This document shows positions 8,200-41,565 of a stretch of DNA of 49,053 nt, one piece after another. Source of the stretch: Candidatus Nanoarchaeia archaeon. Lineage in GTDB: Archaea > Nanobdellota > Nanobdellia > Pacearchaeales > GW2011-AR1. The stretch covers positions 1-49,053 of the forward strand of contig JBGQNO010000004.1 in assembly GCA_041501125.1 (NCBI GenBank). The letters are read 5' to 3'. Each line of letters starts with the position of its first letter. Within the stretch, counting starts at the first letter, position 1. The position numbers and the translations under genes were made by a program. A model generated the notes under the pieces. That model searched no databases. It was given only the letters and a program-made list of their open reading frames with translations, and was not told the origin of the DNA.

Positions 8200-8236
8200 T
8201 AGAATTAATGTTAAAACGTTTTTACCCTTCTGGGTG
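8200..8236 (-). repeat. Dispersed element, right-end copy R1 (inverted orientation)
   Basis: Reverse complement is CACCCAGAAGGGTAAAAACGTTTTAACATTAATTCTA, which aligns without gaps to 25568-25604. Confidence 0.75.
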
Positions 8237-8291
8237 GTGGTTGTAATTATGCATTTTCTTGTGCAATAAATATTTAACACTTAAAAGAACA

Positions 8292-8340
8292 GATTGCCCC
8301 TGTAACCTCGCAAGGTGAAGCATTGTTTACATTAATTCTA
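8292..8340 (+). repeat. Dispersed element, right-end copy R2
   Basis: GATTGCCCCTGTAACCTCGCAAGGT matches 34773-34797 at 24/25 positions; ends in CATTAATTCTA like the other copies. Confidence 0.75.
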
Positions 8341-8344
8341 ATTC

Positions 8345-11257
8345 TTATCTTCTCATCGCATAGAACACAACCAATCCAGCTATTGTCACCATCAGGCTCC
8401 AGAAATTAAAGAATGGAATTTCTGTCGCTGCAAAGCATGAAACTTCTGCCGGGCCCGGGCCCCCAACACATCCTTGCATTGAACCAATGGCAGTGTATGT
8501 TATTGTTTTAATTCCCCTGTTACATGTTCCTTCTGTGATAGAATAACTGCATGTGCCAATAGTTGTAGTTACTCCATTTACTATTTCTATCTCTTCTGCA
8601 CCAGCCTGGCATTCATTGTAAGTAGAATTCCAGACACATAAGCATCTCGTAAATATACAATCAGCGCCAGTGCATGTAGTCCCGCATATAATTCCAGCTG
8701 CTGCTGGAATTTCCTTTATGCTTGCTTCTGCAATTGCAGAATTAAAGTTATTGCAGTCTTCTTCATTCTCATATCCATTCAAGCCTCCGCATCTCACAAT
8801 TCCTGATTTCACGCAGGTATTGATATTATGGTTAGTAGAAGTATCAAGTACATTGAAGCATGTCTGGTCATTTGGACAACAAGTTTTGTCTACTCCATTA
8901 AATGTCCTGAGGCAATTGTCCTTGCTTGATTCTCCAGTGTCAGTCCAGGATGAAGTTGTTTGAGTCTGCTCGCATTTGCCTCCGCATAAACCATAATTAA
9001 ACATGCATTCCTGTGTACATGATAATGTTCCAGGCTCATGCCCTTTTGATTCGCATGTTTGCCCACTCAGATTCTGAACTTTTGCTCCATTAGGACAAGG
9101 CTGTATTGAAGGATTGCACCCAGGATCGCACTCTTCGCCTTTGCTAGTGTCAACAATTCCATTATAATTACAGAATTTTGCTCCGCTTCCTGGAATTGGT
9201 TTACAATCCAAGGTAACATCATCCCATCTACAACAACTACCACTTCCAGAATTTTCACATGCGTTACTATCAATAAACCCTCCGCAATTCACGCTAGAGC
9301 AATTCTTCCTGCATTGCGGAGTTGCTGAGACATTAAATATGCAGCACGGACTTAAGCAATTATCATGCGACAAAATACTGCAGTCAGCAATTGTAGCGCA
9401 TGTAATTCCCCCGCTCACAAACACCAAAGGCAGCCAGTCGCCGTATGGCTCACTAATCTTTATACCAGCTGGAATTCCTGGCATTTGTGGCAAGTTAGTA
9501 TCTCCAATTTTATCTCCAGCCACTCGTCCGCCATTTCCATTGTCAACTCCAGTATAATTGCTCCAGAAATTTCCTCCAATGCAATTCCCATTGACAATAT
9601 TTGTCACTCCATTGCATGTCCTCGTTGTATTCCAGATATTTCCTCCTGCAATCAAGTCGTCATAAGCATTTTTCGAATTGTTAAGGAAGTTATTAAAAAT
9701 AAGGCTGTTCGAGCCAGAACCAATATTAATCCCACGCCCGCTATTATTTTCTACAACGTTTCTTTTAATAATATTGCTATTGCTGTAACTCAACCAAATC
9801 CCATCACCGCGATTGTTTTTGATATTATTCTTATCTATTATGTTATTACCACTCCAATAAAAATATATTCCTTTATTATTATAATTCACAGTATTGTCAT
9901 AAACTAAATTGTATTTTGCTCCATCTCCCATGAAAATTCCTTCTAATCCATTATCATTTATAACATTCTGCTGTATCGTATTATTGAAACCATTTTTAAG
10001 AACAATTCCATTGTAAGAATTGTTAGCAATTGAATTAGAGATTATGATAGATGAATTTAAATTTGCCATCCAGACTCCAAAAACAAATCCAGAAATATCG
10101 CAGTTCTTTATCGTTACATTCTTTCTATTTGTTATATTTATCCCAATACTAAGACCATTGCCTGTTATGTTATGCCCTGCGCAGTCAAGAACAACATTAT
10201 TTGCAGCAATATTTAATCCGTTTGAACAATCATCCAAATCTCTGTTTAAAGTAGTGCTTTTAATTATATTTGAACCACAGTCAATTCCTACAAGAGGAAA
10301 ATAATCTCCGTGATAAGGTGTCTGGGTGTCTCCAATTCCATAATTCTCTGTTCCGACTTCAATGCCAGTATAGTCATTCCAGAAATTTCCTCCTAGACAT
10401 CTTCCGCCCATAATATTTGCTCCACGGCTGCAATCCACAGAAGCAAGATTCCATTTGGTTCCGCTGCTCTCATCGTGATAAACATTTCGCGGGTTGTTGA
10501 ACAAGTTGTTGTAAAACAGATTGTTTGTTGGCCAACTTATGTACATACCTACTTCTTGCAGCATATCTAAACCGTAAGTGTTGTATTTTATAATGTTTGA
10601 AGAAATGTCATTTTGCCCTACTGCGCCCTCCATTTTAATCCCTCTTGTATTTTTAGTTATCTTATTTTCCTTTATGAGATTATTATTGGAACCAGTCTCA
10701 AAATAAATCCCTTCTGAGTTATTTACTATTGTGTTTCGGGTTATATTGTTTGATGTCTTGCCTGGAGCATCCCCAAAATAAATGCCAGCCCCCTTATTAT
10801 TTTTTATAATATTCAAATCAAAAACATTATATCTCAAGTTGTCAGTTCCACTCTTTAATTCAATTCCCCAATGTTCATTATTGTTTATTGTATTGCTGGA
10901 AATCAGGCTGTTATCAGTGCTGTCAAGAACTATTCCGTAACTGCTATTTCTAACAGTATTTGAAGAAATGGTTATATTGTCACCCCAGACAACCTGTATT
11001 CCAATTACGAACCCGGTTATATCACAATTTTTAATTGTTATGCCGGATTGTCCGTGTATGTATATTCCATTTCCACTTCCAGCTCCCGCAATTTTGTGTC
11101 CTGCACAATCAAGATATATGCTATTTCCTGCTAGTTCAACGCCTTCATTTAAGTCAGTTGATAATGTTTTGCTAGAATAAAAAGTCACACCAAGAACACT
11201 GCTTGCCAGAATAGAAATGCTTAATAGAACTACTGCAAACAAAACCCCTTTTTTCAT
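8345..11257 (-). CDS. Surface protein with two NosD/CASH beta-helix modules, a Cys-rich stalk and a C-terminal IPFF-TM-RR anchor
   Basis: Two LDCAGH.I.G.G starts, I..N.I..N repeats, two WN..C...NI..G.C.GGNFW..Y.G caps; signal peptide. Confidence 0.8.
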   Translation of the reverse strand: MKKGVLFAVVLLSISILASSVLGVTFYSSKTLSTDLNEGVELAGNSIYLDCAGHKIAGAGSGNGIYIHGQSGITIKNCDITGFVIGIQVVWGDNITISSNTVRNSSYGIVLDSTDNSLISSNTINNNEHWGIELKSGTDNLRYNVFDLNIIKNNKGAGIYFGDAPGKTSNNITRNTIVNNSEGIYFETGSNNNLIKENKITKNTRGIKMEGAVGQNDISSNIIKYNTYGLDMLQEVGMYISWPTNNLFYNNLFNNPRNVYHDESSGTKWNLASVDCSRGANIMGGRCLGGNFWNDYTGIEVGTENYGIGDTQTPYHGDYFPLVGIDCGSNIIKSTTLNRDLDDCSNGLNIAANNVVLDCAGHNITGNGLSIGINITNRKNVTIKNCDISGFVFGVWMANLNSSIIISNSIANNSYNGIVLKNGFNNTIQQNVINDNGLEGIFMGDGAKYNLVYDNTVNYNNKGIYFYWSGNNIIDKNNIKNNRGDGIWLSYSNSNIIKRNVVENNSGRGINIGSGSNSLIFNNFLNNSKNAYDDLIAGGNIWNTTRTCNGVTNIVNGNCIGGNFWSNYTGVDNGNGGRVAGDKIGDTNLPQMPGIPAGIKISEPYGDWLPLVFVSGGITCATIADCSILSHDNCLSPCCIFNVSATPQCRKNCSSVNCGGFIDSNACENSGSGSCCRWDDVTLDCKPIPGSGAKFCNYNGIVDTSKGEECDPGCNPSIQPCPNGAKVQNLSGQTCESKGHEPGTLSCTQECMFNYGLCGGKCEQTQTTSSWTDTGESSKDNCLRTFNGVDKTCCPNDQTCFNVLDTSTNHNINTCVKSGIVRCGGLNGYENEEDCNNFNSAIAEASIKEIPAAAGIICGTTCTGADCIFTRCLCVWNSTYNECQAGAEEIEIVNGVTTTIGTCSYSITEGTCNRGIKTITYTAIGSMQGCVGGPGPAEVSCFAATEIPFFNFWSLMVTIAGLVVFYAMRR

Positions 11258-11297
11258 TCCTTTACAATACTTTGCGCATTTATAAATTTTTATTTTC

Positions 11298-13618: not shown

Positions 13619-13666
13619 TTGCTTATTTTATACCTTATGTTTATCTGGTAAATAGTAACATCTTAA

Positions 13667-13692
13667 AAAATATTTCTTTCAAGGAATATTTT
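13667..13692. promoter_or_regulatory. Imperfect inverted repeat between the divergent endonuclease and pdaD genes
   Basis: AAAATATTTC-N6-GGAATATTTT (9/10 complementary); AT-rich, so it could be chance. Confidence 0.25.
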
Positions 13693-13763
13693 ACTCTGGA
13701 GTTACCAAAAATTATAATAAACTTTAAAAACTTCGTTTGTGAGTTAATTTCAAGTGACCATAA

Positions 13764-14405: not shown

Positions 14406-14419
14406 ATTTGTGTTTACAA

Positions 14420-15025: not shown

Positions 15026-15033
15026 ACTGTTCT

Positions 15034-17882: not shown

Positions 17883-17883
17883 T

Positions 17884-27709: not shown

Positions 27710-29029
27710 ATGCCAAAGTCAGTTTATTTTGAAACTTATGGATGCTCAGCAAACCAGAACAATACTGAAATAATACAAGGCTTGTTAGTTAAAGCAGGCT
27801 ACAATCTAGCTAAGAATTCTGAAAAAGCTGATTTTATAGTTATTAACTCATGCATTGTCAAAGGACCAACTGAAAATAGGATTAAATCCAGAATAAACGA
27901 ACTTTCCTCGCTTGGCAAGCAAATTATTGTTGCAGGTTGCATGCCAGATGTCAGAAAATCAGAGCTAAGCAAGTTAAATGTCAAACTTCTTGGAACAAAG
28001 AGCATTAAGTCTATAGTCAAACTTCTTGAGTCAGATTCTAAAGAGCTATTTAATAACAAAGAGATTAAGCTTGACAACTGCAAAATAAGCAGAAACCCGT
28101 GCGTCTCTATCACCCAAATCTCAGAAGGCTGTCTTGGAAACTGCTCTTATTGCGCAACCAGGTTAGCCAAAGGAAACCTTTTCTCATTCCCAGAACAAGA
28201 AATTCTGGCAAGCATTGAACACGACTTAACTAAAGGAGCTAAAGAAATCTGGGTGACAAGCCAGGACAATGCAATTTATGGCATTGATAAAGGCAAACCT
28301 AGACTTGCTGAGTTGTTAAACAAGATAATCAGTCTGCCTTATGAGTTTATGTTGAGAATAGGAATGCTTAATCCAAAAGCAACATCTGAAATCAAGGAAC
28401 AGCTGGCAGAAATAATGAAAAATCCAAAAGTTTACAAATTCCTGCATATTCCAGTTCAGTCAGGCTCAAACAAAATCCTCAAAGCCATGAACAGGAACTA
28501 TACAAAAGAGGATTTTGTTGAGTTAATTAAATTCTTTAAACAGCAGCTTCCGGAAATTTCCATTGCAACAGACATAATTGTAGGTTTTCCTGGCGAGTCT
28601 GAGGAAGATTTCAAGGAAACTTCCAGTTTAATAAAAGAAATCAAGCCAGATTTCATTAATGTAAGCAGATTCTGGCCAATGCAAGGCACTGAAGCAGCCA
28701 GAATGAAACAGATTCCAGCAGAAATCATGGGACAACGAGCAATAGAAATACTCAGGCTTTACAAATCTCAGCTTGACAATCAAAGCTGGACTGGCAAAAA
28801 AGAAAAATGCCTAATCAATTTGAAAAACAAGCGAGGCTTCTTTGCTAGAAATTCAAACTACAAAAGAATCTTGGTTGAAAATGCCCAGCAGTCGGATTTG
28901 GGAAAATTTGTTGACATTGAGGTTACAGGAACTCTGAAAAACTATTTGAGGGGAAAAATCTTAAGATTAAAAAAATCCCTTAAACCACTCACCAACTTTT
29001 ATTGCCCAGCCAGTAAATCCAAGTCTTAA
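27710..29029 (+). CDS. tRNA methylthiotransferase, MtaB/CDKAL1-like (t6A37 to ms2t6A)
   Basis: UPF0004 N-terminus (TYGCSAN, INSC.VK, VAGC), radical SAM GCLGNCSYC, DIIVGFPGE, C-terminal TRAM-like domain. Confidence 0.88.
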   Translation: MPKSVYFETYGCSANQNNTEIIQGLLVKAGYNLAKNSEKADFIVINSCIVKGPTENRIKSRINELSSLGKQIIVAGCMPDVRKSELSKLNVKLLGTKSIKSIVKLLESDSKELFNNKEIKLDNCKISRNPCVSITQISEGCLGNCSYCATRLAKGNLFSFPEQEILASIEHDLTKGAKEIWVTSQDNAIYGIDKGKPRLAELLNKIISLPYEFMLRIGMLNPKATSEIKEQLAEIMKNPKVYKFLHIPVQSGSNKILKAMNRNYTKEDFVELIKFFKQQLPEISIATDIIVGFPGESEEDFKETSSLIKEIKPDFINVSRFWPMQGTEAARMKQIPAEIMGQRAIEILRLYKSQLDNQSWTGKKEKCLINLKNKRGFFARNSNYKRILVENAQQSDLGKFVDIEVTGTLKNYLRGKILRLKKSLKPLTNFYCPASKSKS

Positions 29030-32000
29030 ACACAACCCATTTGTGCAATAATGCCCTGTAGGGCATTTGACATTTTCACCCAGTGCAACACTGCCTTGGC
29101 AATACCACTCTTTTAGCGTGCCGTCTTTGTTGCAGCCATCTGTACTTGTCTCTGTTGTACCGTCTGCCTTTACCACTATTGTGCTGCCTTTCACAAGATA
29201 GTTCTTTCCATTGTCGCTATCTTGACATGTTGCAGTTATATTCTGTGGCGTGGCAACACAAGCACCATCATTGCAGGAATAACCTTGCGGACAAATGTAA
29301 ATATTGTTTATACAACTTTTTCCATCAGCACTGCAAGATTTCTCATTTAGGCGTATCACCGAAGGATTCTGTGAATCAGGCAAACATATATCTGGGGCAT
29401 CTTCGCCCGGACTTATGCATGTCCCTTTAACATAATAATTTATGCCACCATCGCTGTCCTTGCATGTTGGTGTAACTTGCTGGGCTGGCGCACTCAAACA
29501 TTTTCCATCCTGGCATCCATACTGACAAGTATAAGCCTCTGATCTTAATATTCCAGCAGGATCTCCAACTGCTCCACAAAACCACTCTCTCAAAAGAACA
29601 TCAGACTGGCAAAAATCAGATTCAGTACGCCCAGGAATTGTTATAGTTCCCTTGATATTATAATTCTTACCTTCATCAGTATCAGCACAAGTTGGCTGTA
29701 CTGTTTGTTTCAAACAAGCACCATCACTGCATCCATAAGGACAAGCATAAACTTGTTTGAATATATCAGTTAGCAAACTGCAAACACCATCAGAAGCATC
29801 ATTCTCCTCAACGTAATACTCCATTAAATTATTACTGTCTGCACAGTAGTCTGTCACACAATTACTTCCCATGCAAGCAACTCCTTTAACCTCATAATTA
29901 ATTCCACCATCAGATTCCTTGCAGTTTATTGTCTGGTTTTGTACAGCTTGAATACATGCGCCATTCTCGCACTTATAACCGCTTGGACAACTTACAATCT
30001 CTCTTAACCAAGTCGTAGAATTAACACAATAAAACTCTCTTAATTTACTTGTATCATCACACATATCAGAATTGCTTCCTGCTACTGGCGGCTTGCAATC
30101 TCCACAAATTCCGTAGACGCTTCCTCGTTTTAAGTAATCTCTGCCATTGTCAGTATCAGTGCATGTTATGTTTGATATTGTTTTAGGCAAGCAAACTCCA
30201 TTTTTACATCCATTTGTACATTTATACTTTAAAATATTAAGCTTATTTGCATCGCAATAACCTTCTCCTAGCCATTCACTAGAAGGCGTTTCATCCCAAG
30301 TTGTTGGGTCTAAACACTTGTCTTTATTTGACACAAAAGTTCCATTATATATCCCTGAGAAATTTCCTTGAGTATAATAGTTAATTCCACCGTCGCTGTC
30401 AGTGCATGTCGTTGTCTGGTTTGCGACTTGAACGCAGGCACCATCCACGCAATTTCCAGGGCAAGTGTATTTTATACTGGCTGATTGATTATTTGAGCAA
30501 TAATACTCATTCACCATAAATCCTTTGTCTCTTTCCCAAGAACAGAAATCTATTTTGGTAATATTATTGACTGTTGTGTTTCCTTTCAAAAAGAAATTTT
30601 TTCCATTGTCAGTATCAGTACATGTCATATTTGTAACATTAGTTACAATTTCCTTTATACAAATGCCATTCTCACAAGTCTCATCACTTGCGCACTTAAT
30701 CCAAGCTCCATTTTGGCAAACTAAGCTTTTATTTATTGAGCAGCTTCCAGATAAAATAGTTTTGTTGCAAATGGCCAGGTGCGTGTTTCCACTGAGGAAC
30801 GGACAACCAACCATATTGTCATTTCCACATACATTGCTTGTGCAAAATTCTGTAGGAAACTGATAAGTTTCAGTACAGTTTTTTGGAGCTAACTTCTCGC
30901 AGTTGTAACAACCTGTGTGCTGGGGATCGTGCATAAACATTGGCCAAGCCATATTAGAAGGATCGTAATCTACTTGTAAGTTAAATATATATAATTTACC
31001 GAATTGATAAGAACACCCAGGATCACATTTAAGAGGAGAAGTCATAACAGCTAAATCAGTTTTGCCATCATTGTCAACATCTTCTATTACTATCTCTTTA
31101 ACAAAATCTACATCGCTCTGTGTAGGAATTATAATTTTCTCCTGTAATGAACCATCAAAATTAAAAATCCAGATATTTGAAGATTTCCCTTCCCAGAAGC
31201 GAGGCCTACTTCCTAAAATAATCTCTTGTGTTCCATCATTGTCTATATCTCCTGCAACAAGTGTTCTACCACTTTCATATATTGATTGGCCGTAGTCAAT
31301 CTCAAAACGACGATTCAGATTTCCTTCTATATCAAAGATAGCAATTGAATCCCTTTCTACCGCCCAAGTTCCAATTTGAGAAGCGACAATATAAAACTTA
31401 TTATCTTGTTCAAGAAGAATTACTCTGTTAGTAATATAACCAAAAGTATTAAATTCATTTAAGATTTCTCCAGAAGAATCAAGAACATAAATCTTAGAAA
31501 CATAAGAGTTCGCATCTGCATAAGACCTATTTAAGTCAATATAATCAAAAAATAGGATAAATTCTTTTTCATTATCATTATTTATATCTCCCGATATTAA
31601 AAAGTCCTGATAAATCTGCGGCTGCACCTTCTGTATAGAATTGAAATCAAAAATAAGAGAAGAGTTTAATAATTCTCCAGAAGAATCATATTTTTCTAAT
31701 TGAATTTTATTTTCATTGATATTCCCGGAGATAAGTGCGATATACTTTACTAATCCAACCATCTCATTTGTGAGTATCAAAGGGCGAATATAAAATCCAT
31801 ATCTGTAGTCATTAGGGTTGAATGAGTCTGTATTAATATTTGCAAAAGGCTTCGAAAAAATAGTAGTTAAGAGGTTTCCAGAATAGTCAAAAAACTTAAA
31901 ACTTGATGCGATATTTTTAATCGTACTAAGTATATCTCCCTTCCATTCATCTCTTAAATATTCTCCTAAAATTCTTTCACTAGAAGGAAAAATAAAAGGA

Positions 32001-34684
32001 TTTATATCTTGACTACTCCAGTATTCGGAAAATTCAGGATATAGTGAAATATAAGGCCATTTTTGTTTATAATTTAGATTTTCATCAAAAACCCCCAATG
32101 AACTATAGCATCTGCCAGGCACACCGTCATTTACTGTTTCATTTACTGTTCGAATGAATGCTAATAACTTGTTTTTTGAATTTAATGAGATAATAGAATT
32201 ACCAAACAAAAACCCTCCACAATCCCCATTTTTAAAATCAAGAATCTTGTATAACCCGGAAGGTTTCCAAATTTCAATTACATTTTTAGAAATATACCAC
32301 CCTCCTCCCAAAGCAATCGATTTATCTGAATTAAATATAATTTCTTTATCTTGATCATCATTTATATCTGCAACAGACAATGAAATTGGGGCTTTGAAAG
32401 TTATGGTATGATATACTCCTACTCCCTCTCTTAATCGCTTAAAAATTATGACTTTTAAGGGAACACTTTCTACAGCCTTGCCAGTTTTTGTATATGCCTC
32501 AATTTTTAACTCGTATGAATCGTCTTCAAAAGAATCCACGTTTACACTTCCTATTTCTCCACTTTTTAAGGGTTCGGAAGATGCATGAACTGTCTGCCAG
32601 TCTTCTCCTATTTTTCTCATTTTTAATTCATATCTTGCATACTCCCCATTGTCAACAGAACCTAAAATTTTCTCTGTAGGCTGTATCATATAATTTTCTT
32701 CATTTCCTGCTTGTGTAATATAAAAGTTTTTTATTTCAAAAATTATTGTGTCTTTAAACTTTATTCCCTTGCTGTTTTGCACTTCAAGTTGTAATATAAC
32801 TTGGCCGTTATCAAAAAGAGTAGTGTCCAAATTATATAACTGTGTCCCAGAGGGTTGTGTATCCGAACTAGTAATTATTTCTCTCCAGCCTCTTTCTAAA
32901 TGTTCTAGATAAAGAGTATATTTAGAAAAATTACTTACATTGATTATAGCATCTAAACTAATAACTCCAGAAACTTTTGATTCAACAGGCAATATTTCAA
33001 CTTTCCCCGATCCTTCTAACTCTACAGCCCCAAAAACATCAGTCCTTCCATAACCTTGTGTTGTTACAGGTTCATTGATATCAACAGCAGTATTCCTCAA
33101 AGCAGCTTTGATTTCTTCCGGCGTCCAGTCAGGTTTTTTCTGTTTAAGCAAAGCAGCAGCTCCTGCAACATGCGGTGTTGCCATGCTTGTTCCTGAAATT
33201 GCAACATGCTTGTCGTCTAAACACTGGTAACTTGCCCACGGCTTGTTTGAAGATTGTGCAGCACAAATATTAACACCCGGTGCAGTAACATCTGGCTTAA
33301 CTATTGCTCTTTCATTTCCCTCGCTGTCTGTCCAGATTACAGGTCCTCTTGAACTAAAACTTGCAATCTTATCTTGCTTATCTGTAGCACCAACAGTTAT
33401 TGCTTTCCTTGCTGTTCCTGGACTTCCAATTGTATTCTCTCCAGGCCCAGAATTTCCAGCAGCAATAACTGCAACAACACCAGCATCAACAGCATTATCA
33501 ATTGCTTGGCTTGGTGCATCATCAGGATTTCCATAACCTCCAAGACTCATTGAAATTATATCAACATGGTCTGAGAAATTTCCATCTTGATTGGGGTCAA
33601 CAGCTCTTTCTATTCCTGCAATTACTCCCTCAAAAGAACCACTACCACCAGCGTCTAAAACTTTGTAAGCATAAAGTTTAGCATCAGGCGCAACACCCTT
33701 TAGTGTTCCGTTTCCCGCCGCTGTTGCAGCAACATGTGTTCCGTGTCCCATGTCATCCATAGGATCAGCATCATTATTAATAAAATCCCAGCCACCAACA
33801 ACCTTGCAACCAGCTCCAAAACATCCTCCTAAATCCGGATGTGTGTAGTCAACTCCAGTATCAATAATCGCAATGCTAATTCCTTTTCCTGTCAAACAAT
33901 CTTTTCCAGAACTTGCACACGAGTTTCCCTCGCTGTCTAACAACCAGACATCATCAGCATTAATCAAAGGAACAGAATCCATCAACATTGCTTTAACTTC
34001 GTAATTAGGCTGAACACTTTTCACTCCATCAACTTTCTCAATTTCTTTTGCTTCTTCTGCTGAAATGTTTAAGGCAACACCATTAAACACTTTTTCATAG
34101 TCATTTAAAACTTTTAATTCGCTGTTGTCTATTGCATGTCCTGTAATTTTACTCAAAAATCCAGATATCGCGCTGCCAGTTATTTTCTCACTTTTTAATT
34201 TAGCAAGCTTGCTCTTTATTCTCTCTTTTACATCTTCATGATTTTTCTTAAGCTCTTTTTCATAATCTTTTACTTCATCTGCAATATCTTCAGGCATAAT
34301 TTTAATATATTTAGTATATGTTCCTGCAACTTTTGTTCCCACTTTATATAGCGGCGCTGCTTTGGCCTTTTCAACATAATTCTTGTTCTTTTCTGCTTCT
34401 TGTTTTAATTCTGCTTCCTTAACAACAAGTGGCGCATCCTCAAACTCAACAATATAACCTTGAAACTTAGGTGTTTCAGCCCCAGTGATGCTTTGTGATA
34501 CAAACATTCCCATTCCTCCATCTGTAACAGAAGTTATTACTCCTTCTTGCCCCAAAACCATTCCAGGTGTAACTTGTCCTATTGTTTGTTGGTTTTCATT
34601 TTTATCAGTAACTAATGCGTAAGTTAAACTTACACACAATATTAACAACATAAATGATATAAGAAACACACTCCTTTTTTGCAT
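28967..34684 (-). CDS. Large secreted S8 subtilase with I9-like prodomain, FG-GAP-like propeller and seven Cys-rich repeats
   Basis: Catalytic triad IIDTG / HGTHVA / GTSMATPH; DIN.D.D.E repeats; CxD[ST]DxG repeats. Confidence 0.92.
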   Translation of the reverse strand: MQKRSVFLISFMLLILCVSLTYALVTDKNENQQTIGQVTPGMVLGQEGVITSVTDGGMGMFVSQSITGAETPKFQGYIVEFEDAPLVVKEAELKQEAEKNKNYVEKAKAAPLYKVGTKVAGTYTKYIKIMPEDIADEVKDYEKELKKNHEDVKERIKSKLAKLKSEKITGSAISGFLSKITGHAIDNSELKVLNDYEKVFNGVALNISAEEAKEIEKVDGVKSVQPNYEVKAMLMDSVPLINADDVWLLDSEGNSCASSGKDCLTGKGISIAIIDTGVDYTHPDLGGCFGAGCKVVGGWDFINNDADPMDDMGHGTHVAATAAGNGTLKGVAPDAKLYAYKVLDAGGSGSFEGVIAGIERAVDPNQDGNFSDHVDIISMSLGGYGNPDDAPSQAIDNAVDAGVVAVIAAGNSGPGENTIGSPGTARKAITVGATDKQDKIASFSSRGPVIWTDSEGNERAIVKPDVTAPGVNICAAQSSNKPWASYQCLDDKHVAISGTSMATPHVAGAAALLKQKKPDWTPEEIKAALRNTAVDINEPVTTQGYGRTDVFGAVELEGSGKVEILPVESKVSGVISLDAIINVSNFSKYTLYLEHLERGWREIITSSDTQPSGTQLYNLDTTLFDNGQVILQLEVQNSKGIKFKDTIIFEIKNFYITQAGNEENYMIQPTEKILGSVDNGEYARYELKMRKIGEDWQTVHASSEPLKSGEIGSVNVDSFEDDSYELKIEAYTKTGKAVESVPLKVIIFKRLREGVGVYHTITFKAPISLSVADINDDQDKEIIFNSDKSIALGGGWYISKNVIEIWKPSGLYKILDFKNGDCGGFLFGNSIISLNSKNKLLAFIRTVNETVNDGVPGRCYSSLGVFDENLNYKQKWPYISLYPEFSEYWSSQDINPFIFPSSERILGEYLRDEWKGDILSTIKNIASSFKFFDYSGNLLTTIFSKPFANINTDSFNPNDYRYGFYIRPLILTNEMVGLVKYIALISGNINENKIQLEKYDSSGELLNSSLIFDFNSIQKVQPQIYQDFLISGDINNDNEKEFILFFDYIDLNRSYADANSYVSKIYVLDSSGEILNEFNTFGYITNRVILLEQDNKFYIVASQIGTWAVERDSIAIFDIEGNLNRRFEIDYGQSIYESGRTLVAGDIDNDGTQEIILGSRPRFWEGKSSNIWIFNFDGSLQEKIIIPTQSDVDFVKEIVIEDVDNDGKTDLAVMTSPLKCDPGCSYQFGKLYIFNLQVDYDPSNMAWPMFMHDPQHTGCYNCEKLAPKNCTETYQFPTEFCTSNVCGNDNMVGCPFLSGNTHLAICNKTILSGSCSINKSLVCQNGAWIKCASDETCENGICIKEIVTNVTNMTCTDTDNGKNFFLKGNTTVNNITKIDFCSWERDKGFMVNEYYCSNNQSASIKYTCPGNCVDGACVQVANQTTTCTDSDGGINYYTQGNFSGIYNGTFVSNKDKCLDPTTWDETPSSEWLGEGYCDANKLNILKYKCTNGCKNGVCLPKTISNITCTDTDNGRDYLKRGSVYGICGDCKPPVAGSNSDMCDDTSKLREFYCVNSTTWLREIVSCPSGYKCENGACIQAVQNQTINCKESDGGINYEVKGVACMGSNCVTDYCADSNNLMEYYVEENDASDGVCSLLTDIFKQVYACPYGCSDGACLKQTVQPTCADTDEGKNYNIKGTITIPGRTESDFCQSDVLLREWFCGAVGDPAGILRSEAYTCQYGCQDGKCLSAPAQQVTPTCKDSDGGINYYVKGTCISPGEDAPDICLPDSQNPSVIRLNEKSCSADGKSCINNIYICPQGYSCNDGACVATPQNITATCQDSDNGKNYLVKGSTIVVKADGTTETSTDGCNKDGTLKEWYCQGSVALGENVKCPTGHYCTNGLCLRLGFTGWAIKVGEWFKGFF

Positions 34685-34721: not shown

Positions 34722-34886
34722 TATTAATAACAAAACTTCTTTAACGCTTCCTCAGCAATTCATCTGCTTGATGATTGCCCGTGTAACCTCGCAAGGTCTT
34801 TGTTTGCCGCAGCGAGAAAGCCCACAGTGAAACGAGGAGCTTCACAGCAAGAGCAAATCAAAGATTATGTTTCAGCATTAATTCTT
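34722..34886 (+). repeat. Dispersed element copy (165 bp)
   Basis: Left end TATTAATAACAAAACTTC..ACGCTT..TCAGC, core GATTGCCCGTGTAACCTCGCAAGGT, right end CATTAATTCT; shares CACAGCAAGAG..AAAGATTA with the 25359 copy. Confidence 0.7.
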
Positions 34887-34981
34887 AGAATCTCAATTAG
34901 CAAACAAACAATAAAAGAAAGCTAATAATAGCTAAACCTTGTTTATCTCGGCTTCCTCTTTTTTTAAATTTGAGCAGCTAG

Positions 34982-35788: not shown

Positions 35789-35843
35789 TTTCGAACCTTA
35801 GTTTTATTATGATGGAGTGATATTTAAACCTTTCTTCACTGCG

Positions 35844-38621
35844 TTATATTCTTTCAAAAACTATCTCTACATCCTCATCTTTCACTTTTATGACAGTTCC
35901 GTGAAGTTTTTCCGTCGTGAAACTGACTGATTTAGAATTTGTTCTTTCCTTGATTATTCCAGTCACTTTTTCAAGCTTTTTGATTAGTCCCTTGCTCACA
36001 GCAACAGAAAGTTTGATTTTGTCGTCTTTCACAAGTCCTTTCTTCTTCCTTTCAGCCTGCACAGCTCTGCTTATCTCGCGTGCAAAACCTTCAGCCTCTA
36101 GTTCTGGAGTCATCTTGGTATCAAATAAAATGCTTGTTTCTCCAGATTCCTTGAATGCTACTTGCTTGACATTCAACTGCCTGCCAATTATATCAGAAAA
36201 CTTTTCAAGTTCTTTTGTATTCTTGCACAAAATACTTGCTTTAGCCAGGGGCCATCTTAATCCTATCTTTCCAGCATCTCTGGCTGCCAATCCTTTTTCA
36301 ATTATTTCAAAAACAACATCAAAATTCTCTTCAAGCTTCTTGTCAATCATTTTCTCATCAACTTTAGGCCAGTCTGAAAGATGAACTGAGCGCTTTTCAA
36401 ATTCATTATGTATAACTTCAGTAATATTTGGAGTATATGGAGCAAGTAATTTTGAAATACAGTAAAGAATATCTCTAACAACTTGTTTTACATTCTTGTC
36501 TTCCCTGTCTCTTATAATTTTAATATACTTTCTTGAAAAATCATTTGAGACAAAATCAATTATGGGTTTTAATGCTTTGTCAATGTTAAATTTTTCCAGA
36601 TTTTCTGTAGATGTTTTGACAATAGAGTTTAATCTTGACAAAATCCATTTATCTTCAATTTCCTGCTTGCCTTTCTCATTATTGTTTAGTTGTTTGTAAT
36701 ACTGGCAGGTATTCCACAATATATTTAGGAATGGCAAAACATCAGACTTAACCATGCTAACTGAAAATCTTTTAGGCTCTCCGATATCATAAATGCAGAA
36801 TTGCATTCTTGTTGCATCCATTCCAACTTCGTCAAGAACTTTGTTAGGGTCAAGAATATTGCCTTTGCTTTTTGACATTTTCTCGCCTTTCTCATCTACA
36901 AGATGTCCTGCGCAAATTACATTTTTGTAAGTAACATTGTCAAAAAGAATAGTTCCAAGAACATGCAGTGTATAAAACCATCCTCGTGTCTGGTCAATAG
37001 CTTCAGCAATAAAATCATATGGAAATCTTTTTTCAAACTCGGCTTTATTTTCAAATGGATAATGAAATTGCGCGAATGGCGCAGAGCCCGAGTCATACCA
37101 ACAGTCAATAACATCCGGAACTCTTGACATCTCGTTTTTGCATTTGGGGCATTTTAATTTAACACTGTCAATCCAAGGCTTGTGCAAGTCAATTTCGTTG
37201 TCATTTAATTTTTTAACAGACTTTTTCCTTAATTCTTCCACACTTCCAATTATCTCTTCATTTCCGCATTTGCATCTCCATATTGGCAGCGGAGTTCCCC
37301 AGAATTTTTTCCTTGAAAGCGCCCAGTCTTTTACATTTTTGAGCCATTCACCAAATCTTCCTTCTTTTATATGCTCAGGAACCCAGTTAATTTTTTCATT
37401 AAGCTCAAGCAGTCTCTCTTTGTATTTTGTAACTTTAATGAACCATGATTTAATTGCATAATACATTAAAGGAGTGTCGCATCTCCAGCAGAAAGGATAG
37501 TCGTGCTCATATTTTAAAACTTTGAACAGTTTTCCTTCTTTATCCAGCCTGTTCATTATTTCTTTGTCAGCGTCTTTGATGAACTTTCCAGCATATTCAG
37601 GAACATCTTTTGTAAATCTCCCAGTTTCATCAATCGGCTGTACAAATGGCAAATTGCATGACTTGCATACCTCAAAATCTACTTCGCCAAACGCAGGCGC
37701 CATGTGTACTATTCCAGTACCCTCTTCTATTGTAACAAAATTTCCGCTGATTATTACAAAAGCCTTCATCTCTTTGAAGTACGGGAACAACGATTCATAT
37801 TTCTGTCCAACAAGCTCTTTGCCCTTTACTGTTTTGATAATCTTTGGATTGTCAAAAAATTTATGCGCAAGTTCTTTTGCAACAATATACGTTTCCTTGT
37901 CTTTGATGTAAGCATAATCTAAGTCTGGATTTACTGCAATTGCAAGATTGCTTGGCAGTGTCCATGGAGTAGTTGTCCATACAAGAAGATATTCATCTTT
38001 GTTTTTCAGCTTGAATTTTACAACAACAGAATCTTCTTTTATTTTTTTATAACCCTGGGCTACTTCATGGCTTGACAAAGGTGTTTCGCATCTCGGACAG
38101 AACGGAACAACTTTGTGGTCTTCGTATAAAAGTTTCTTGTCATAAAGTTGCTTCAGGCTCCACCATATGCTCTCAATATAGTCATTGTTGAGTGTAATGT
38201 AAGGATGTTCAAGATCAATCCAGTAACCCATTCTCTCAGTTGACTTGTTCCAGTCCTTGATGTATGAGAACACGCTTTCTCTGCATTCATTTATGAATTT
38301 TGATTCTCCAAATTTTAGAATATCTTTTTTGCTGTTAAGCTTAAGCTTCTTTTCAATCTGAACTTCAACAGGCAAGCCATGGCAGTCCCATCCAGCTTTT
38401 CTAGGCACATTATATCCTTGCATGTACTTGAATTTATTTATAATATCCTTAAATGTGCGAACCTCAAGATGGTGCAGTGCTGGAGGAGCATTAGCTGTCG
38501 GTGGTCCTTCAAGAAAACTAAACAGCTTCTTTCTTGTTTTATCATCAGACACTGCTTTCTGAATGTCTTTCTTGCTGGTTATTTTGCCGGCTTTTTCCTC
38601 AATCTCCTTAAAGTTATACAT
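35844..38621 (-). CDS. ileS: Isoleucyl-tRNA synthetase (IleRS2-like)
   Basis: EGPPTAN..ALHH, GWDCHGLPVE, WTTTPWTLPSN, GTGIVH.AP, KMSKS. Confidence 0.97.
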   Translation of the reverse strand: MYNFKEIEEKAGKITSKKDIQKAVSDDKTRKKLFSFLEGPPTANAPPALHHLEVRTFKDIINKFKYMQGYNVPRKAGWDCHGLPVEVQIEKKLKLNSKKDILKFGESKFINECRESVFSYIKDWNKSTERMGYWIDLEHPYITLNNDYIESIWWSLKQLYDKKLLYEDHKVVPFCPRCETPLSSHEVAQGYKKIKEDSVVVKFKLKNKDEYLLVWTTTPWTLPSNLAIAVNPDLDYAYIKDKETYIVAKELAHKFFDNPKIIKTVKGKELVGQKYESLFPYFKEMKAFVIISGNFVTIEEGTGIVHMAPAFGEVDFEVCKSCNLPFVQPIDETGRFTKDVPEYAGKFIKDADKEIMNRLDKEGKLFKVLKYEHDYPFCWRCDTPLMYYAIKSWFIKVTKYKERLLELNEKINWVPEHIKEGRFGEWLKNVKDWALSRKKFWGTPLPIWRCKCGNEEIIGSVEELRKKSVKKLNDNEIDLHKPWIDSVKLKCPKCKNEMSRVPDVIDCWYDSGSAPFAQFHYPFENKAEFEKRFPYDFIAEAIDQTRGWFYTLHVLGTILFDNVTYKNVICAGHLVDEKGEKMSKSKGNILDPNKVLDEVGMDATRMQFCIYDIGEPKRFSVSMVKSDVLPFLNILWNTCQYYKQLNNNEKGKQEIEDKWILSRLNSIVKTSTENLEKFNIDKALKPIIDFVSNDFSRKYIKIIRDREDKNVKQVVRDILYCISKLLAPYTPNITEVIHNEFEKRSVHLSDWPKVDEKMIDKKLEENFDVVFEIIEKGLAARDAGKIGLRWPLAKASILCKNTKELEKFSDIIGRQLNVKQVAFKESGETSILFDTKMTPELEAEGFAREISRAVQAERKKKGLVKDDKIKLSVAVSKGLIKKLEKVTGIIKERTNSKSVSFTTEKLHGTVIKVKDEDVEIVFERI

Positions 38622-38652
38622 TTCCCTACTATGAATGCCTCGTTTTTAAAAC

Positions 38653-39354
38653 TTATTTAACCCTAAAGTTCTCCAAGAACTCGTGTTCAAGAAAATGCAG
38701 CTCGCCTGGAATAATGAAGCAGAATGGTTTCTTTATGCCCTCTTTTGTTAATTTTTTGATATCTCCATAAATAATACTTGCTTTTTCTGTGCCCATGTTA
38801 GAACACACAATAATTTCTTTTACATTCAAGCTCTCCTGCAGTTGCTTCAAGGCGTCCTCGAACTCAAGCCCGATATCAACCAGGATTAATGAATGAGCTT
38901 TTATTGATTGATTTTCTTTTACAATGTCAGCAAAACTCTTGGGTTTATGCTCTGGGGTCCATTTTGGCAGGCTTGTTGTCTTGCCAAACTTGTACATCTG
39001 CAGTCCTGTCTCTGCAATTGCATCATAGATGCTGGCTGCATAAACAATTTTGTATTGCACTTTTTGTTCAATGCACTCCTGCAGCAAGGCGATATGAGTT
39101 GTCGCAAACAAAGGCGAGCCATAAACAAGTAATGCAATGTCTTTCTTCTTGGCTTCTTCAACCAGCTTCGAAGTCTCAACATCTTCTCTTCCAAGTTTCT
39201 TGATTTTCTTGCCAATTATTTTTTCAATTTCTTCAAGCTTGTACGGAAAATCAACAGTGTATCCTTCCAGGTAGCATTCGCATTTCTTTGCAAGTTCAAT
39301 GCCTTCAAGGCTGATGCCTTTCTGGTTCAAGCCAAGTCCGATTAAATATAGCAT
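38653..39354 (-). CDS. dph5: Diphthine synthase
   Basis: MLYLIGLGL, YLEGYT, LLVYGSPLFATTH, GLQ.YKFGKTTSLP, CFIIPGELH. Confidence 0.92.
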   Translation of the reverse strand: MLYLIGLGLNQKGISLEGIELAKKCECYLEGYTVDFPYKLEEIEKIIGKKIKKLGREDVETSKLVEEAKKKDIALLVYGSPLFATTHIALLQECIEQKVQYKIVYAASIYDAIAETGLQMYKFGKTTSLPKWTPEHKPKSFADIVKENQSIKAHSLILVDIGLEFEDALKQLQESLNVKEIIVCSNMGTEKASIIYGDIKKLTKEGIKKPFCFIIPGELHFLEHEFLENFRVK

Positions 39355-39429
39355 AATCCAGTTTAGAAACTCAAGTTTTAAACCTTGCGCCTCGGAAAGA
39401 TTTAAGAATTATAATGTAGTTATGCAGTT

Positions 39430-39870
39430 ATGAAAAAGAGTGTATGGATAATTATTGCTGTGGTTATCATTGCAATCGCAGTGTTCTTGTATGTTCAGGA
39501 TCGTCAAAAGACAGAAGCAAACTGCGCCAAGGAAGGCGAACAGTTTTCTGTTGTTTACAAAGACCAGTATCCAGAAAAATGCTGCTCAGGTTTGACAGAG
39601 TGGGAATCTGGATTTGATTCAAGAATCGCAATAGGAAACAATTGTTTTGACACTGGTTTGCTGAAAGGAAGCCCTGTCGGAACATGCATAAATTGCGGAG
39701 ATGGTGTTTGCGGCGATAAAGAAAATGTTTGCAACTGTCCTCAGGACTGTCAAAATGCTAGCCACTCGACATACAAGACTGTTCAGGATTTCTGCAACAT
39801 AGCCTATCAAAATTACTGCAATGAAGAGAAAAAGAACTCAACTCTTTGCAAACTTTGCAGCCTTGTTTAA
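39430..39870 (+). CDS. Membrane-anchored Cys-rich hypothetical protein
   Basis: N-terminal TM helix; CCSGL and CGDGVC...EN.CNCP.DC motifs. Confidence 0.7.
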   Translation: MKKSVWIIIAVVIIAIAVFLYVQDRQKTEANCAKEGEQFSVVYKDQYPEKCCSGLTEWESGFDSRIAIGNNCFDTGLLKGSPVGTCINCGDGVCGDKENVCNCPQDCQNASHSTYKTVQDFCNIAYQNYCNEEKKNSTLCKLCSLV

Positions 39871-40367
39871 TAAACAATCGCAACCGTAACATATTTTATC
39901 TGGCTGAACCTTATCTTGCCGTCTGAAATCAAATTATTGTCTCCCTTGACTATGAAGTATTTTCCTTCAGTGTCGTTTCCGATTTCAACCACTCTATGCA
40001 CAATGAGATTATTGAAAGATTCATAAGTAACAATGTCGCCAACCTGAATGTCATTGTCATTTCTTGGAACTATCCTGATGCCATTTGCACCAGAGTCAAT
40101 TATTGGTACCATGCTTTTAGTCGAAGCATAATCTGAAAGGCTTGCATTTTTCAAATAAATTACAATCCTGTCATTGTACACTTCAATATCATTTTGAGAA
40201 ATCCTGTCAGCAGGTATGCTGTTTGTATTGTAATGCAATACTCCTGATGGAAGCTCTGTGCTTATGCTCGAACCAGTCAGATAATCAGAACTCAATACTC
40301 CAAATTCAAACACCAGGGCAAGAACAGCAATAACCAAAGCCCATTTCCAAATCCACTCAGTTTCCAT
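39867..40367 (-). CDS. S26 signal peptidase I-like protein (Sec11 type)
   Basis: TKSM.P, GDIV.Y, IVHRV, KGDNN motifs. Confidence 0.85.
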   Translation of the reverse strand: METEWIWKWALVIAVLALVFEFGVLSSDYLTGSSISTELPSGVLHYNTNSIPADRISQNDIEVYNDRIVIYLKNASLSDYASTKSMVPIIDSGANGIRIVPRNDNDIQVGDIVTYESFNNLIVHRVVEIGNDTEGKYFIVKGDNNLISDGKIRFSQIKYVTVAIVY

Positions 40368-40426
40368 CTAAACTTTATCAAATGGTTATATATAAATTTT
40401 TCTTTTGTAACTACTACTTAGTTTCT

Positions 40427-40672
40427 TCAAGCTCTTCTTGCGGACATGTAAGAAACAATTGCCATATATACAAGGCTTAGCGCAACAATTTCGTTTTTCA
40501 ATATCAAAAATGCAGCGCTTCCGACACATGATAATAGGACTACAAGCTTGAACCATCTTTGTCCGTCATGAAGCTCTTCTTTTGTCAGCCATGCTATGAG
40601 CAGGCCAACAGGAATCGCTGTCAGTAAAGTGAAAACAACAAGCAAATTAGTCAACATACAATTTTTAAACAT
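40427..40672 (-). CDS. Small membrane protein
   Basis: Three hydrophobic segments; the true start may be the ATG at 40657. Confidence 0.55.
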   Translation of the reverse strand: MFKNCMLTNLLVVFTLLTAIPVGLLIAWLTKEELHDGQRWFKLVVLLSCVGSAAFLILKNEIVALSLVYMAIVSYMSARRA

Positions 40673-40690
40673 CTATTGTTTAAAAAACTA

Positions 40691-41461
40691 ATGAAATTCA
40701 AAATACTTGCCAGCAAAAACGACATCGCAGGCAGAAATATCGCAGCAGAACTTGAAAAACTCGGACTTGGTGCAAAAATAGTTCATCTGGAAACAGATTC
40801 TATTCATGCAGAGAATATTGACAAGCAGATTTTTGGAGACATTTTTATTTTTATTTCAAAACATAAATCAGAGCAAAAGAGTAAGACACTGACAGTCCAT
40901 GCTCCTGGAAACTGGAGACAGGCAGATTTTGGAGGACAGCCAGGAAAAGCCAGTCTTACAACTTCATTTTTCCTTAAGCATCTTTTTTTAATTCTAAACA
41001 AGCAAGCTGAAGGCTCTGGATATCAAGTTTCTATGGAAGTTACTCATCACGGCCCATACATGGAACGACCTTGTTGTTTTATTGAAATCGGCTCTGGCGA
41101 AGAACAATGGCAGGATAAAAATGCAGCAAAGATAATTGCCCAGTCCGTACAACAGGCAATTTCAACAGACATAGGTGTTGGATGGATTTCTGCAATCGCA
41201 ATAGGCGGACCTCACTACTGCCCTAATTTCAACAAAGTCCAGCTTTCAGAAAAATACGCACTTGGACATATAATTCCAGAATACTCTTTGCCATTAACAA
41301 AAGAAATGCTCAAAGAAGCAATTGACAAAACACTTCCTCAGCCAGAGCTCGCAATACTTGACTGGAAAGGGCTCGGCAAAGCTGAACAAAGGCAGGAAAT
41401 CATCAAGATGCTTGAGCAGTCAGGATTAAAATACATAAGAACAGACAAAGCCAGGGAATAA
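40691..41461 (+). CDS. dtdA: Archaeal D-aminoacyl-tRNA deacylase (DTD2)
   Basis: SKHKS, LTVHAPGN, EVTHHGP, FIEIGS, GGPHY motifs. Confidence 0.92.
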   Translation: MKFKILASKNDIAGRNIAAELEKLGLGAKIVHLETDSIHAENIDKQIFGDIFIFISKHKSEQKSKTLTVHAPGNWRQADFGGQPGKASLTTSFFLKHLFLILNKQAEGSGYQVSMEVTHHGPYMERPCCFIEIGSGEEQWQDKNAAKIIAQSVQQAISTDIGVGWISAIAIGGPHYCPNFNKVQLSEKYALGHIIPEYSLPLTKEMLKEAIDKTLPQPELAILDWKGLGKAEQRQEIIKMLEQSGLKYIRTDKARE

Positions 41462-41478
41462 TGAGAAGAGTTTTTTAT

Positions 41479-41565
41479 TATTAATAACAAATCTTCAAAT
41501 GCTTACTCAACAAACATGCCACCCCTGTAACCTCTCAATGTAAAAACGTTTAAACATTAATTCTA
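41479..41565 (+). repeat. Dispersed element, minimal copy (87 bp)
   Basis: TATTAATAACAAATCTTC..GCTT..TCAAC-AAACATGCC..CCCCTGTAACCTC..GTAAAAACGTTTAAACATTAATTCTA. Confidence 0.75.

Follow-up and report, generated by a model that had tools for sequence, protein, structure and literature searches.

Strand-polar mosaic repeats with a conserved 4-bp hairpin in the intergenic DNA of a Candidatus Nanoarchaeia archaeon

The DNA examined here, referred to as the window, is the whole of contig JBGQNO010000004.1 (49,053 nucleotides) of a Candidatus Nanoarchaeia archaeon (GenBank assembly GCA_041501125.1). Its intergenic spacers hold short related elements, which a first-pass annotation of the sequence had picked out as an undescribed modular family with conserved ends and a covarying hairpin. 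These elements were found to form a dispersed, genome-wide family built around a right-end module (R), in some copies joined to a left-end module (L). The hairpin in R keeps its pairing through compensatory changes, and the orientation of the copies follows the GC skew of the surrounding DNA. The family may be an archaeal counterpart of REP (repetitive extragenic palindromic) sequences and bacterial interspersed mosaic elements (BIMEs).

Data sets

The assembly (G000) comprises 625 kb in 16 contigs (C1–C16, the window being the whole of C4), with a GC content of 38% and a completeness of 88%, so that ~12% of the genome is missing from it. Gene calls throughout were crude longest open reading frame (ORF) calls, by which ~90% of the genome is coding. 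The direction of replication was taken from GC skew alone, on the assumption that skew marks replication in the host archaeon. The comparative set of relatives consisted of ~81 kb in 13 metagenome contigs (Ga0315288/289/291), perhaps from two or three related populations.

Results

Elements in the window

Five loci in the window share a common right end, ...CATTAATTCT(A), and/or a left end, ATTAAT(G/A) followed by an A-run and ACGCTT. With at most one mismatch, CATTAATTCT was present 21 times in the window compared to 9.8 ± 3.3 times in shuffled sequences. The first two loci are R modules that form an inverted doublet. Copy 1 (8200–8246, minus strand) was recognized by sequence, by nhmmer at 8203–8237 and by the covariance model R1 at 8204–8246 (43.8 bits). 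Its terminus, TAGAATTAATG, abuts the stop codon of a C25-peptidase gene (6338–8194), and its hairpin, ACCC-TTCT-GGGT, lies at 8224–8235. Copy 2 (8283–8340, plus strand; nhmmer 8294–8337; covariance model 53.3 bits) consists of TTGCCCCTGT, the hairpin ACCT-CGCA-AGGT (8305–8316) and GAAGCATTGTTTACATTAATTCTA, and stops 4 nt short of the stop of a NosD-like gene (8345–11257, minus strand).

A long copy occupies 25364–25604 on the plus strand. An optional outer module G (GGCTCGCTGATGCTCGCC, 25336–25353, plus strand) stands before its ATTAAT end, followed by an L module (ATTAATGCATAAAACTTTCAGACGCTTAATCAGCCATTCCTTTGCTT, 25364–25410; nhmmer E 7e-13), inner modules resembling a tRNA-gene trailer (25411–25559), which gave blastn matches in C5, C6, C3, C1, C12 and C8 and in tRNA 3′ flanks, and an R module (25560–25604) identified by nhmmer, the covariance model and sequence. 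The R module contains the hairpin ACCC-AGAT-GGGT (25569–25580), finishes with CCATTAATTCTA and is followed after ~48 nt by the likely argS ATG (25652; the ORF call starts at a TTG, 25631). For this copy and the one at 8292, the hairpin coordinates and the 24-nt distance to the terminus ...CATTAATTCTA given by the first-pass annotation were correct.

The next copy (34723–34886, plus strand) begins with an L module (34723–34770; nhmmer E 2e-8) situated 38 nt from the ATG of an S8-protease gene (28967–34684, minus strand) and abutting the TATA region of that gene. A middle part and R prefix follow (34771–34797; pattern match with one mismatch), closing with the hairpin ACCT-CGCA-AGGT (34786–34797), then a 65-nt insert (CTTTGTTTGCCGCAGCGAG...CAAGAGCAAATCAAAGAT, 34798–34862) and the R end TATGTTTCAGCATTAATTCTT (34863–34886), recognized by sequence. 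Both the ACCT/AGGT hairpin and the insert had been noted previously; what needed correction was the nature of the insert, which by sequence comparison is, like the inner modules of the 25359 copy, a module trailing many tRNA genes. This tRNA-trailer module (TGTTTGTT.GCCGCAG...CAAGAG.AAATCAAA) follows at least ten tRNA genes, for example at 24560–24623 in the 3′ flank of tRNA-Thr (24624–24696, minus strand), and is also embedded directly after the hairpin in two L–R elements (34798–34862 and 25411–25559). The arrangement with the 65-nt insert was found a second time at C5 27622.

The fifth locus is a short full element composed of a degenerate L and an R (41479–41565, plus strand; nhmmer and covariance model). 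It has a broken hairpin (ACCT/ATGT) and fills the convergent DtdA/CBS spacer. Pfam matches in the window to TrmB and the archaeal D-aminoacyl-tRNA deacylase mark the contig as archaeal, and homologues annotated as Pacearchaeota/Nanoarchaeota, together with the small genome size, put it within the DPANN archaea.

A sixth locus, 22959–22987, had been counted in the same family. Membership held for the five loci above but not for this one, where sequence inspection revealed an L-end-like motif only (22959–22993, minus strand), undetected by the L profile. The motif, T5 followed by ATTAATTCT on the minus strand (...GAGTTTTTGTTATTAATTCTA / GTTTTTGTTATTAATTCTA), is directly 3′ of the end of an archaeal signal recognition particle (SRP) RNA gene (22994–23257, minus strand; Rfam RF01857, 74.4 bits, E 7e-15, under the gathering score of 96.5). 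The termini of this gene pair as GUGCAGACU/AGUCUGCAC; an TTTAAATA box precedes the gene by 24 nt, and downstream of it is a T4...T5 + ATTAATTCT stretch. The motif is probably the oligo-T terminator of the SRP RNA gene rather than a full family member.

A genome-wide family

A genome-wide search and a covariance model had been proposed as a check on the family, and both were run. The iterated nhmmer profile of R produced 43 matches in the genome, or 42 non-redundant copies as one was a contig-end overlap duplicate, and none in five shuffled genomes. The covariance model of R gave 39 matches in the assembly, and the L profile 22, with 21 of these at E ≤ 1e-4. None of the R matches fell inside a predicted ORF, so that the description of all copies as intergenic was borne out, and the elements showed no coding potential. 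Similarly, no description of the family was found in the literature on DPANN MITEs (miniature inverted-repeat transposable elements), on intergenic repeats of Pacearchaeota or on archaeal REP sequences and REP-associated tyrosine transposases (RAYTs), consistent with its designation as undescribed.

The core unit is the R module of ~45 nt, consisting of TTGCCCCTGT, the 4-bp hairpin ACCY-N4-RGGT and then AAAWCGTTTTAACATTAAT(TCT). An upstream L accompanied R in 17 copies and was lacking in 25, while four L modules stood alone. Full elements of 87–250 bp combine R with a left module (ATTAATG, an A-run and ...GACGCTTAAGCAACCATTCAT), a middle piece (TTGCTTGATGA) and, optionally, outer GCTCGC modules or tRNA-trailer modules; the outer module GGCTCGCTGATGCTCGCC preceded the ATTAAT end in about nine intergenic copies. 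A canonical full element is ~95 bp, as in C7 14491–14586 (ATTAATGTAAAAATTTCTGAGACGCTTAAGCAACCATTCATTTACTTGAGGATTGCCCCTGTAACCTCGCAAGGTAAAATCATTTGAACATTAAT). The termini are imperfect inverted repeats, as had been claimed, with ATTAATG and an A-run at one end and a T-run and CATTAAT at the other; in about a third of the full copies they read AGAATTAATG...CATTAATTCT.

In total, dispersed repeats make up ~23% of the intergenic DNA, with R modules present at ~67 per Mb or one copy per ~15 kb. Contig ends of the assembly were seen to overlap by 141 bp (e.g. C5 1–141 = C13 15520–15660). Several of these ends are located within family copies, and the assembly is therefore broken by the repeats.

The hairpin

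Across 37 R modules, 97.3% of the cells of the ACCY-N4-RGGT helix were paired, compared to 90.8 ± 1.0% after column shuffling; sliding the helix gave 49% at most. The closing pair was C-G in 22 copies and U-A in 13, and two further pairs each had one independent double change, giving compensatory changes in three of the four pairs. The compensatory change reported by the first-pass annotation was therefore real and larger than claimed. When the 18 copies from relatives were included (60 copies in total), 230 of 239 pair cells were Watson-Crick; the two main stems were ACCC/GGGT (34 copies) and ACCT/AGGT (16 copies), with 16 different loop sequences. Mixed closing pairs were seen in only 2–3 of the 37 modules, whereas independent reading of the half-sites in duplex DNA would lead one to expect ~17. 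What is constrained is therefore the pairing of bases within a single strand, and the hairpin is under selection.

Seven of the departures from pairing were of the transition type. Six of these are C.A on the L-to-R strand and thus G.T on the R-to-L strand, with one the reverse (p = 0.125), and two more departures (C.T and A.G) pair on neither strand. This asymmetry hints that the G-rich R-to-L strand may be the one that folds.

The alignment-based fold (alifold) recovered no structure in R beyond this hairpin, and nothing in L; whole elements folded no better than their shuffles (z −1.0 to +0.7). The two termini are alike in sequence without covariation. Several other structures were tried and rejected. 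Second helices (AAGCAA/TTGCTT, GCAACC/GGATTGC and GYATG/CATRC) occurred in subsets of copies with inconsistent support, and symmetric covariation of the dyad TAAAACGTTTTA was confined to one subtype. A K-turn or L7Ae site would require a GA.AG tandem, absent beside the stem; for a C/D-box RNA, the TGATGA lies mid-element, with no suitably spaced CTGA and none in most copies; and no H/ACA pocket was seen. In an integron attC site, paired R″/R′ and L″/L′ boxes fold the whole site, in arrays beside an IntI gene. Here, as judged by eye and with no search made for IntI, the base next to ATTAAT pairs in only about half of 20 copies without covariation, and the copies are dispersed among core genes. 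The foot of the hairpin reads TGTA-ACC, CTTAC-ACC or CCACC-ACC.

Copies in related genomes

The covariance model found no match in 150 other genera of the GTDB family. Because these share ~50% protein identity with the present genome and are not syntenic, they are uninformative on empty sites. Viral contigs and 185,579 species genomes gave no match to a strict pattern, and blastn against plasmids and phages was equally negative. The 13 metagenome contigs, in contrast to the sister genera, are syntenic with this genome at 72–83% nucleotide identity, and 18 R modules were found in them.

Most of these modules occupy the orthologous spacer in the same orientation, as for window 41522 (L032), C7 27552 (L030), C3 26532 and 19026 (both L031), C11 18866 (L035/L039), C2 16471 (L034/L042) and C6 23005 (L037). 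The family has been in place since before the related species split. In 11 of 12 pairs, however, the closest paralogue within the genome (80–89%) exceeded the orthologue (56–77% identity) in similarity, and orthologous sites differed in their prefix and hairpin subtypes. Copies are therefore replaced or converted in place, and not simply inherited and mutated.

The first-pass annotation had suggested looking for empty sites and target duplications in relatives. Presence or absence of an element was indeed seen at a few sites, but no target duplications were present. Between 18341 and 18394 of C3, a 52-bp spacer corresponds to an R module in three related contigs. At C11 ~16080, 11 nt in G000 correspond to a ~200-nt composite of outer modules, L and R in L039, with a stop codon on one side and the next TATA box on the other. 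At C2 ~14930, a remnant of ~15 nt of an R end corresponds to an inverted R doublet in L042.

One difference was on the scale of a gene. At C7 31187–32104, a 177-aa gene has a solo L module on one side and a full element on the other, whereas relatives L036 and L040 have a single element only, which can be explained either by a deletion or by an insertion through recombination between L modules. The product is a conserved hypothetical protein without a Pfam domain, at 55–68% identity and uniform length across Pacearchaeota/Nanoarchaeota. The earlier proposal that the elements are recombination sites mobilizing surface-protein genes therefore stands in that the repeats take part in rearrangements; the gene concerned is not for a surface protein. 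Separately, L031 5105–5310 and L038 3330–3540 are identical over ~130 nt through the R module and then ~90% identical in the adjoining gene, a divergence point that suggests a recombination breakpoint at the element.

Placement and orientation

In 32 of 42 copies, the R end was directed towards a gene's 3′ end (background 43.5%, p = 3e-5), usually 3–40 nt from the stop codon. The L end had no such bias and kept at least 38 nt from start codons, leaving room for a promoter. Occupied spacers comprised 13 of 49 convergent, 21 of 237 tandem and 6 of 99 divergent spacers (convergent 13/49 compared to 27/336 for all others, p = 4e-4). Genes, tRNAs and the SRP RNA of this genome have clear promoters, in the form of TTTATAAA/TTTAAA boxes ~25 nt before their starts; transcripts are therefore mostly leaderless. 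With these as the TATA boxes of the genome, ATTAAT was rejected as a promoter.

For 36 of 42 copies, the L-to-R strand coincided with whichever strand is C-rich over the surrounding 20 kb. In skew-positive regions all six copies were on the minus strand, and where the skew is negative 30 of 36 were on the plus strand (Fisher p = 1.8e-4). In spacers of the convergent and divergent types, which are neutral as to gene direction, 17 of 20 copies followed the skew (p = 0.003), including 12 of 14 in convergent spacers alone. The majority orientation agreed with the skew in 11 of 11 non-tied contigs (p = 0.001), and agreement was also seen for 15 of 18 copies on the relatives' contigs. Since this polarity, the co-orientation of most genes with the same strand and the enrichment in convergent spacers together reproduce the association with 3′ ends, the polarity was treated as primary.

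These data bear directly on a serious rival to the REP-like reading, possible if rather unlikely, in which the elements are gene-end cassettes acting in RNA. As 3′-untranslated region or terminator modules, they would stop or stabilize the transcripts of converging and tandem genes through the outward oligo-T runs at both ends and the A4-CG-T4 dyad in R, and would have been spread by recombination rather than transposition. Besides the orientation of R towards stop codons and the convergent enrichment, this is supported by the conserved occupancy of sites across species, by the presence of T5 + ATTAATTCT after the SRP RNA gene, where a terminator is expected, by the tRNA-trailer modules (co-transcribed with tRNAs) in two elements and by the wobble departures, which favour the strand co-directional with the upstream gene. 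T4–T6 runs point outward at both ends, where this reading would place the ends of transcripts. Against it, the 3′-end association follows from polarity, co-orientation and convergent enrichment as described above, and the adherence of convergent-spacer copies to the skew is not predicted by a role in untranslated regions. Six copies are in divergent spacers, 10 R ends point towards promoters, the T-runs in the mRNA-sense reading of R are short and variable (T2–T5), whole elements fold like shuffles, and some orthologous spacers have no element, such as the 11-nt spacer of C11. A gene-end role would nevertheless be compatible with a REP-like origin.

Target duplications and candidate enzymes

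No direct target duplication was found at the flanks of 14 full copies, where the AAGA and TCTT bordering the two ends are inverted and not direct, or at the presence/absence and rearrangement junctions in relatives. The suggestion of an IS630-type TA duplication was likewise unsupported, as the flanks read AGA-ATTAAT...ATTAAT-TCT. The candidate empty target AGAATTAATTCT, which is palindromic, had only one intact exact site in the genome.

The first-pass annotation had noted no transposase nearby, and this extended to the whole 88%-complete assembly, in which Y1/HUH, DDE and TnpB transposases were not found. There were no matches to Y1_Tnp (PF01797), DDE_Tnp_IS240 (PF13610), rve (PF00665) or DDE_Tnp_1 (PF01609), and the TnpB C-terminal domain gave two sub-threshold zinc-ribbon matches. 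Neither a longer element with the same ends nor a long inverted pair around ORFs was found in the assembly. Among the 13 related contigs, three (L032, L040 and L041) yielded ten ORFs in their unmatched parts, and no transposase was among these. By comparison, of 151 genera examined in the GTDB family, 47 had Y1 transposases (PF01797), at up to 11 copies per genome (e.g. L045–L050).

Two other repeats were observed. On C8, a perfect 23-bp inverted repeat (GCGACAGAAAATTTTCCACAGCA, 7480–7502 and 10767–10789) encloses 3.3 kb without credible ORFs; considered as a transposon, it was rejected, the enclosed stretch being probably a large rRNA gene and the repeat its processing stem. In the window, 9421–10530 contains internal repeats within the 970-aa NosD/beta-helix gene, with up to 10 self-matches.

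The absence of target duplications and of transposases weighs on the reading of the family as classical MITEs, that is, deletion derivatives of a DDE-type insertion sequence (IS) mobilized in trans via the AGAATTAATG/CATTAATTCT terminal inverted repeats. Inverted termini of 7–10 bp, a size of 87–250 bp, the many non-coding intergenic copies, their presence or absence between related species and a census reporting very high MITE density in a Woesearchaeal genome (PMC11602168) all fit it, and as ATTAAT is palindromic, a duplicated ATTAAT, TTAA or AT target could hide inside the terminal repeat. Even so, only the single intact AGAATTAATTCT site is available as an empty target, strand polarity is unexpected for cut-and-paste DDE MITEs, over half of the R modules have no left end, and the unit gained or lost in relatives is bounded by GCTCGC modules and not by the terminal repeats. 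This reading was judged distinctly unlikely, and together with the small RNA gene reading it is one of the weaker ones.

If the elements were independently transcribed small RNA genes, one ATTAAT/A-rich end would hold the promoter and the opposite end an oligo-T terminator. The selected hairpin with its free loops, the outward T-runs at both ends, which resemble the terminator of the SRP RNA, and co-orientation with the strand carrying most genes are in keeping with this. It is more doubtful again, however: the element ends are without the TTTATAAA/TTTAAA boxes of the genome, conserved structure is limited to 4 bp, the sequence outside the hairpin is swapped between orthologues, and R-only copies have no presumed terminator or promoter. 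Rfam searches of the window at E ≤ 1 matched only tRNA and SRP RNA and no family for the elements, so that of the earlier suggestion of a modular non-coding RNA the hairpin stood and the rest was weakened by this result, the shuffle-like folding and the single 4-bp helix recovered.

Polar chromosomal protein-binding sites of a KOPS/Ter-like logic, read in replication, segregation or dimer resolution by a host protein such as an XerA-like recombinase, would account for the strong orientation bias with GC skew, the conserved occupancy and the TAAAACGTTTTA dyad beside the hairpin, but are highly improbable given that such sites are normally short and not limited to spacers, that the pairing constraint argues for a single-stranded fold and not a duplex reading, and that copies are gained and lost between close species.

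Discussion

The favoured reading is that the family consists of lineage-specific, non-coding and non-autonomous mosaic repeats, the archaeal counterpart of REP/BIME with a BOX-like build, handled as single-stranded DNA (ssDNA) in a replication-coupled manner. It is held tentatively, at slightly below an even chance. Several features match the logic of REP/BIME and IS200/IS605 by analogy: a hairpin that is under selection and keeps a fixed distance to the end, the lack of target duplication, skew-tied orientation, enrichment at harmless sites, long persistence with in-place exchange of subtypes, and mosaic joints at the hairpin foot. The enrichment in convergent spacers is a distribution typical of tolerated selfish repeats. 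Among the four identities offered by the first-pass annotation, the REP/HUH-like one fitted best with respect to skew orientation, missing target duplications, selected hairpin and the frequency of Y1 enzymes in the taxonomic family, with the MITE (IS630 TA) and non-coding RNA identities weaker.

In mechanistic terms, the hairpin would be adopted by single-stranded nucleic acid, the G-rich (R-to-L) strand being the most probable one, and the elements would be, or have been, cut, copied and recombined as ssDNA at the replication fork. Handling at the fork is suggested because orientation follows the GC-skew strand and not the neighbouring genes. IS200/IS605 and REP systems are known for hairpin-guided ssDNA processing on the lagging-strand template (PMC6006769). 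The agent may be a hairpin-recognizing enzyme acting in trans, with an IS200-type Y1/HUH enzyme as the best candidate; in Archaea, only the IS200 subclass has been reported, the RAYT classes being reported only in bacteria (PMC6006769). Selection would spare copies only at harmless places, after stop codons and between convergent genes, and repeated cleavage and joining at the hairpin could produce the mosaic modules and the subtype swaps at fixed sites.

A number of points weigh against this reading. At 4 bp, the stem is well below the length of REP or IS200/IS605 hairpins. Each unit contains a single hairpin rather than a pair, one per end; its ends are inverted repeats, a feature that HUH elements can do without; and the GTAG/CGTC tag is absent at the hairpin foot. 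No Y1_Tnp match was obtained in the 88%-complete assembly, and the Y1-bearing sister genera had no R-like module, so that no enzyme is linked to the repeats. The copies are old and without recent mobility: paralogues are at most ~93% identical and there was therefore no recent burst. The wobble asymmetry is no more than suggestive (p = 0.125), the covariation between subtypes derives partly from shared ancestry of subfamilies, and GC skew as a marker of replication direction is an assumption. Because of the short stem, the single hairpin, the inverted termini and the missing tag and enzyme, the fit is imperfect, and the family was filed as working like REP/BIME and IS200/IS605, not as a member of either.

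The boldest form of the argument, that this is the first REP-like system of Archaea, with strand-polar hairpin elements processed as ssDNA at the fork in a host without a recognizable transposase, is an unlikely one as it stands. If true, it would call for an undescribed hairpin-specific ssDNA enzyme, a domesticated single-copy Y1 in the unassembled 12% or a replication-linked host role of the elements as polar chromosome marks, and through module exchange at the hairpin, a recombination mechanism would be built into the repeats, reshaping spacers and relocating genes.

DPANN genomes are among the most compact known, yet roughly a quarter of the scarce intergenic DNA here is dispersed repeats. 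If they are REP-like ssDNA elements, hairpin-guided, replication-coupled repeat systems would reach into the Archaea, where RAYT-type enzymes are not known, and the direction of replication in uncultured archaea could be approached through them. If instead they serve as gene-end signals, the way in which transcripts of this lineage end would be defined by them. Either way, the repeats mark spacer turnover, assembly breaks and at least one gene-scale rearrangement, and are therefore useful for strain typing and for interpreting metagenome-assembled genomes of the clade.

Comparison with known repeat systems

The REP/BIME/REPIN repeats of proteobacteria, mobilized by the Y1 HUH enzyme RAYT, are, like the present family, high-copy and extragenic with a hairpin kept by compensatory changes. 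Both occur as singlets with occasional inverted doublets (here window 8200–8340 and L042 1–90) and in mosaics with other motifs; both are enriched after genes and between convergent genes, are lineage-specific with long vertical persistence, and leave no target duplication. They differ in the stem (4 bp compared to 10–15 bp), in the tag, in the inverted ATTAAT termini and in the RAYT gene, not found in the 88%-complete assembly. Doublets are rare in the present family and its orientation is strongly strand-polar.

IS200/IS605 elements and their miniature derivatives, the palindrome-associated transposable elements (PATEs), share the small subterminal hairpin at a fixed distance from the end (24 nt here), the lack of target duplication and a replication-strand orientation bias (here deduced from skew only), and Y1 transposases are frequent in the same archaeal family. 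In the present family, however, the hairpin is in R only and not at both ends as in PATEs, the termini are inverted repeats, TnpA and TnpB are missing from the assembly, TnpA-bearing genomes have no R-like ends, and no conserved target tetranucleotide was identified.

Compared to terminal inverted repeat (TIR)-type MITEs, the family has such repeats, but they are imperfect and an L partner was present for only 17 of 42 R modules; a target duplication and an autonomous IS were not found. Most copies here do not have the two features that MITE-Tracker asks for, TIRs together with a target site duplication. In the MITE-Tracker census, a Woesearchaeal genome was among the densest, at 105 MITEs per Mb (compared to ~67 R modules per Mb here), and the census gives no anatomy, hairpin, polarity or comparative data (PMC11602168).

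The last comparison is with BOX of Streptococcus pneumoniae (boxA-boxB(n)-boxC) and with Correia, RUP and ERIC. BOX folds are long and stable, without reported replication-strand polarity, and the sequences are unrelated, the present family being archaeal. What is shared with these systems is the build, with conserved end modules and inner modules variable in number and kind, the partial inverted symmetry of the ends, the intergenic location and, with BOX, the lack of a known dedicated transposase.

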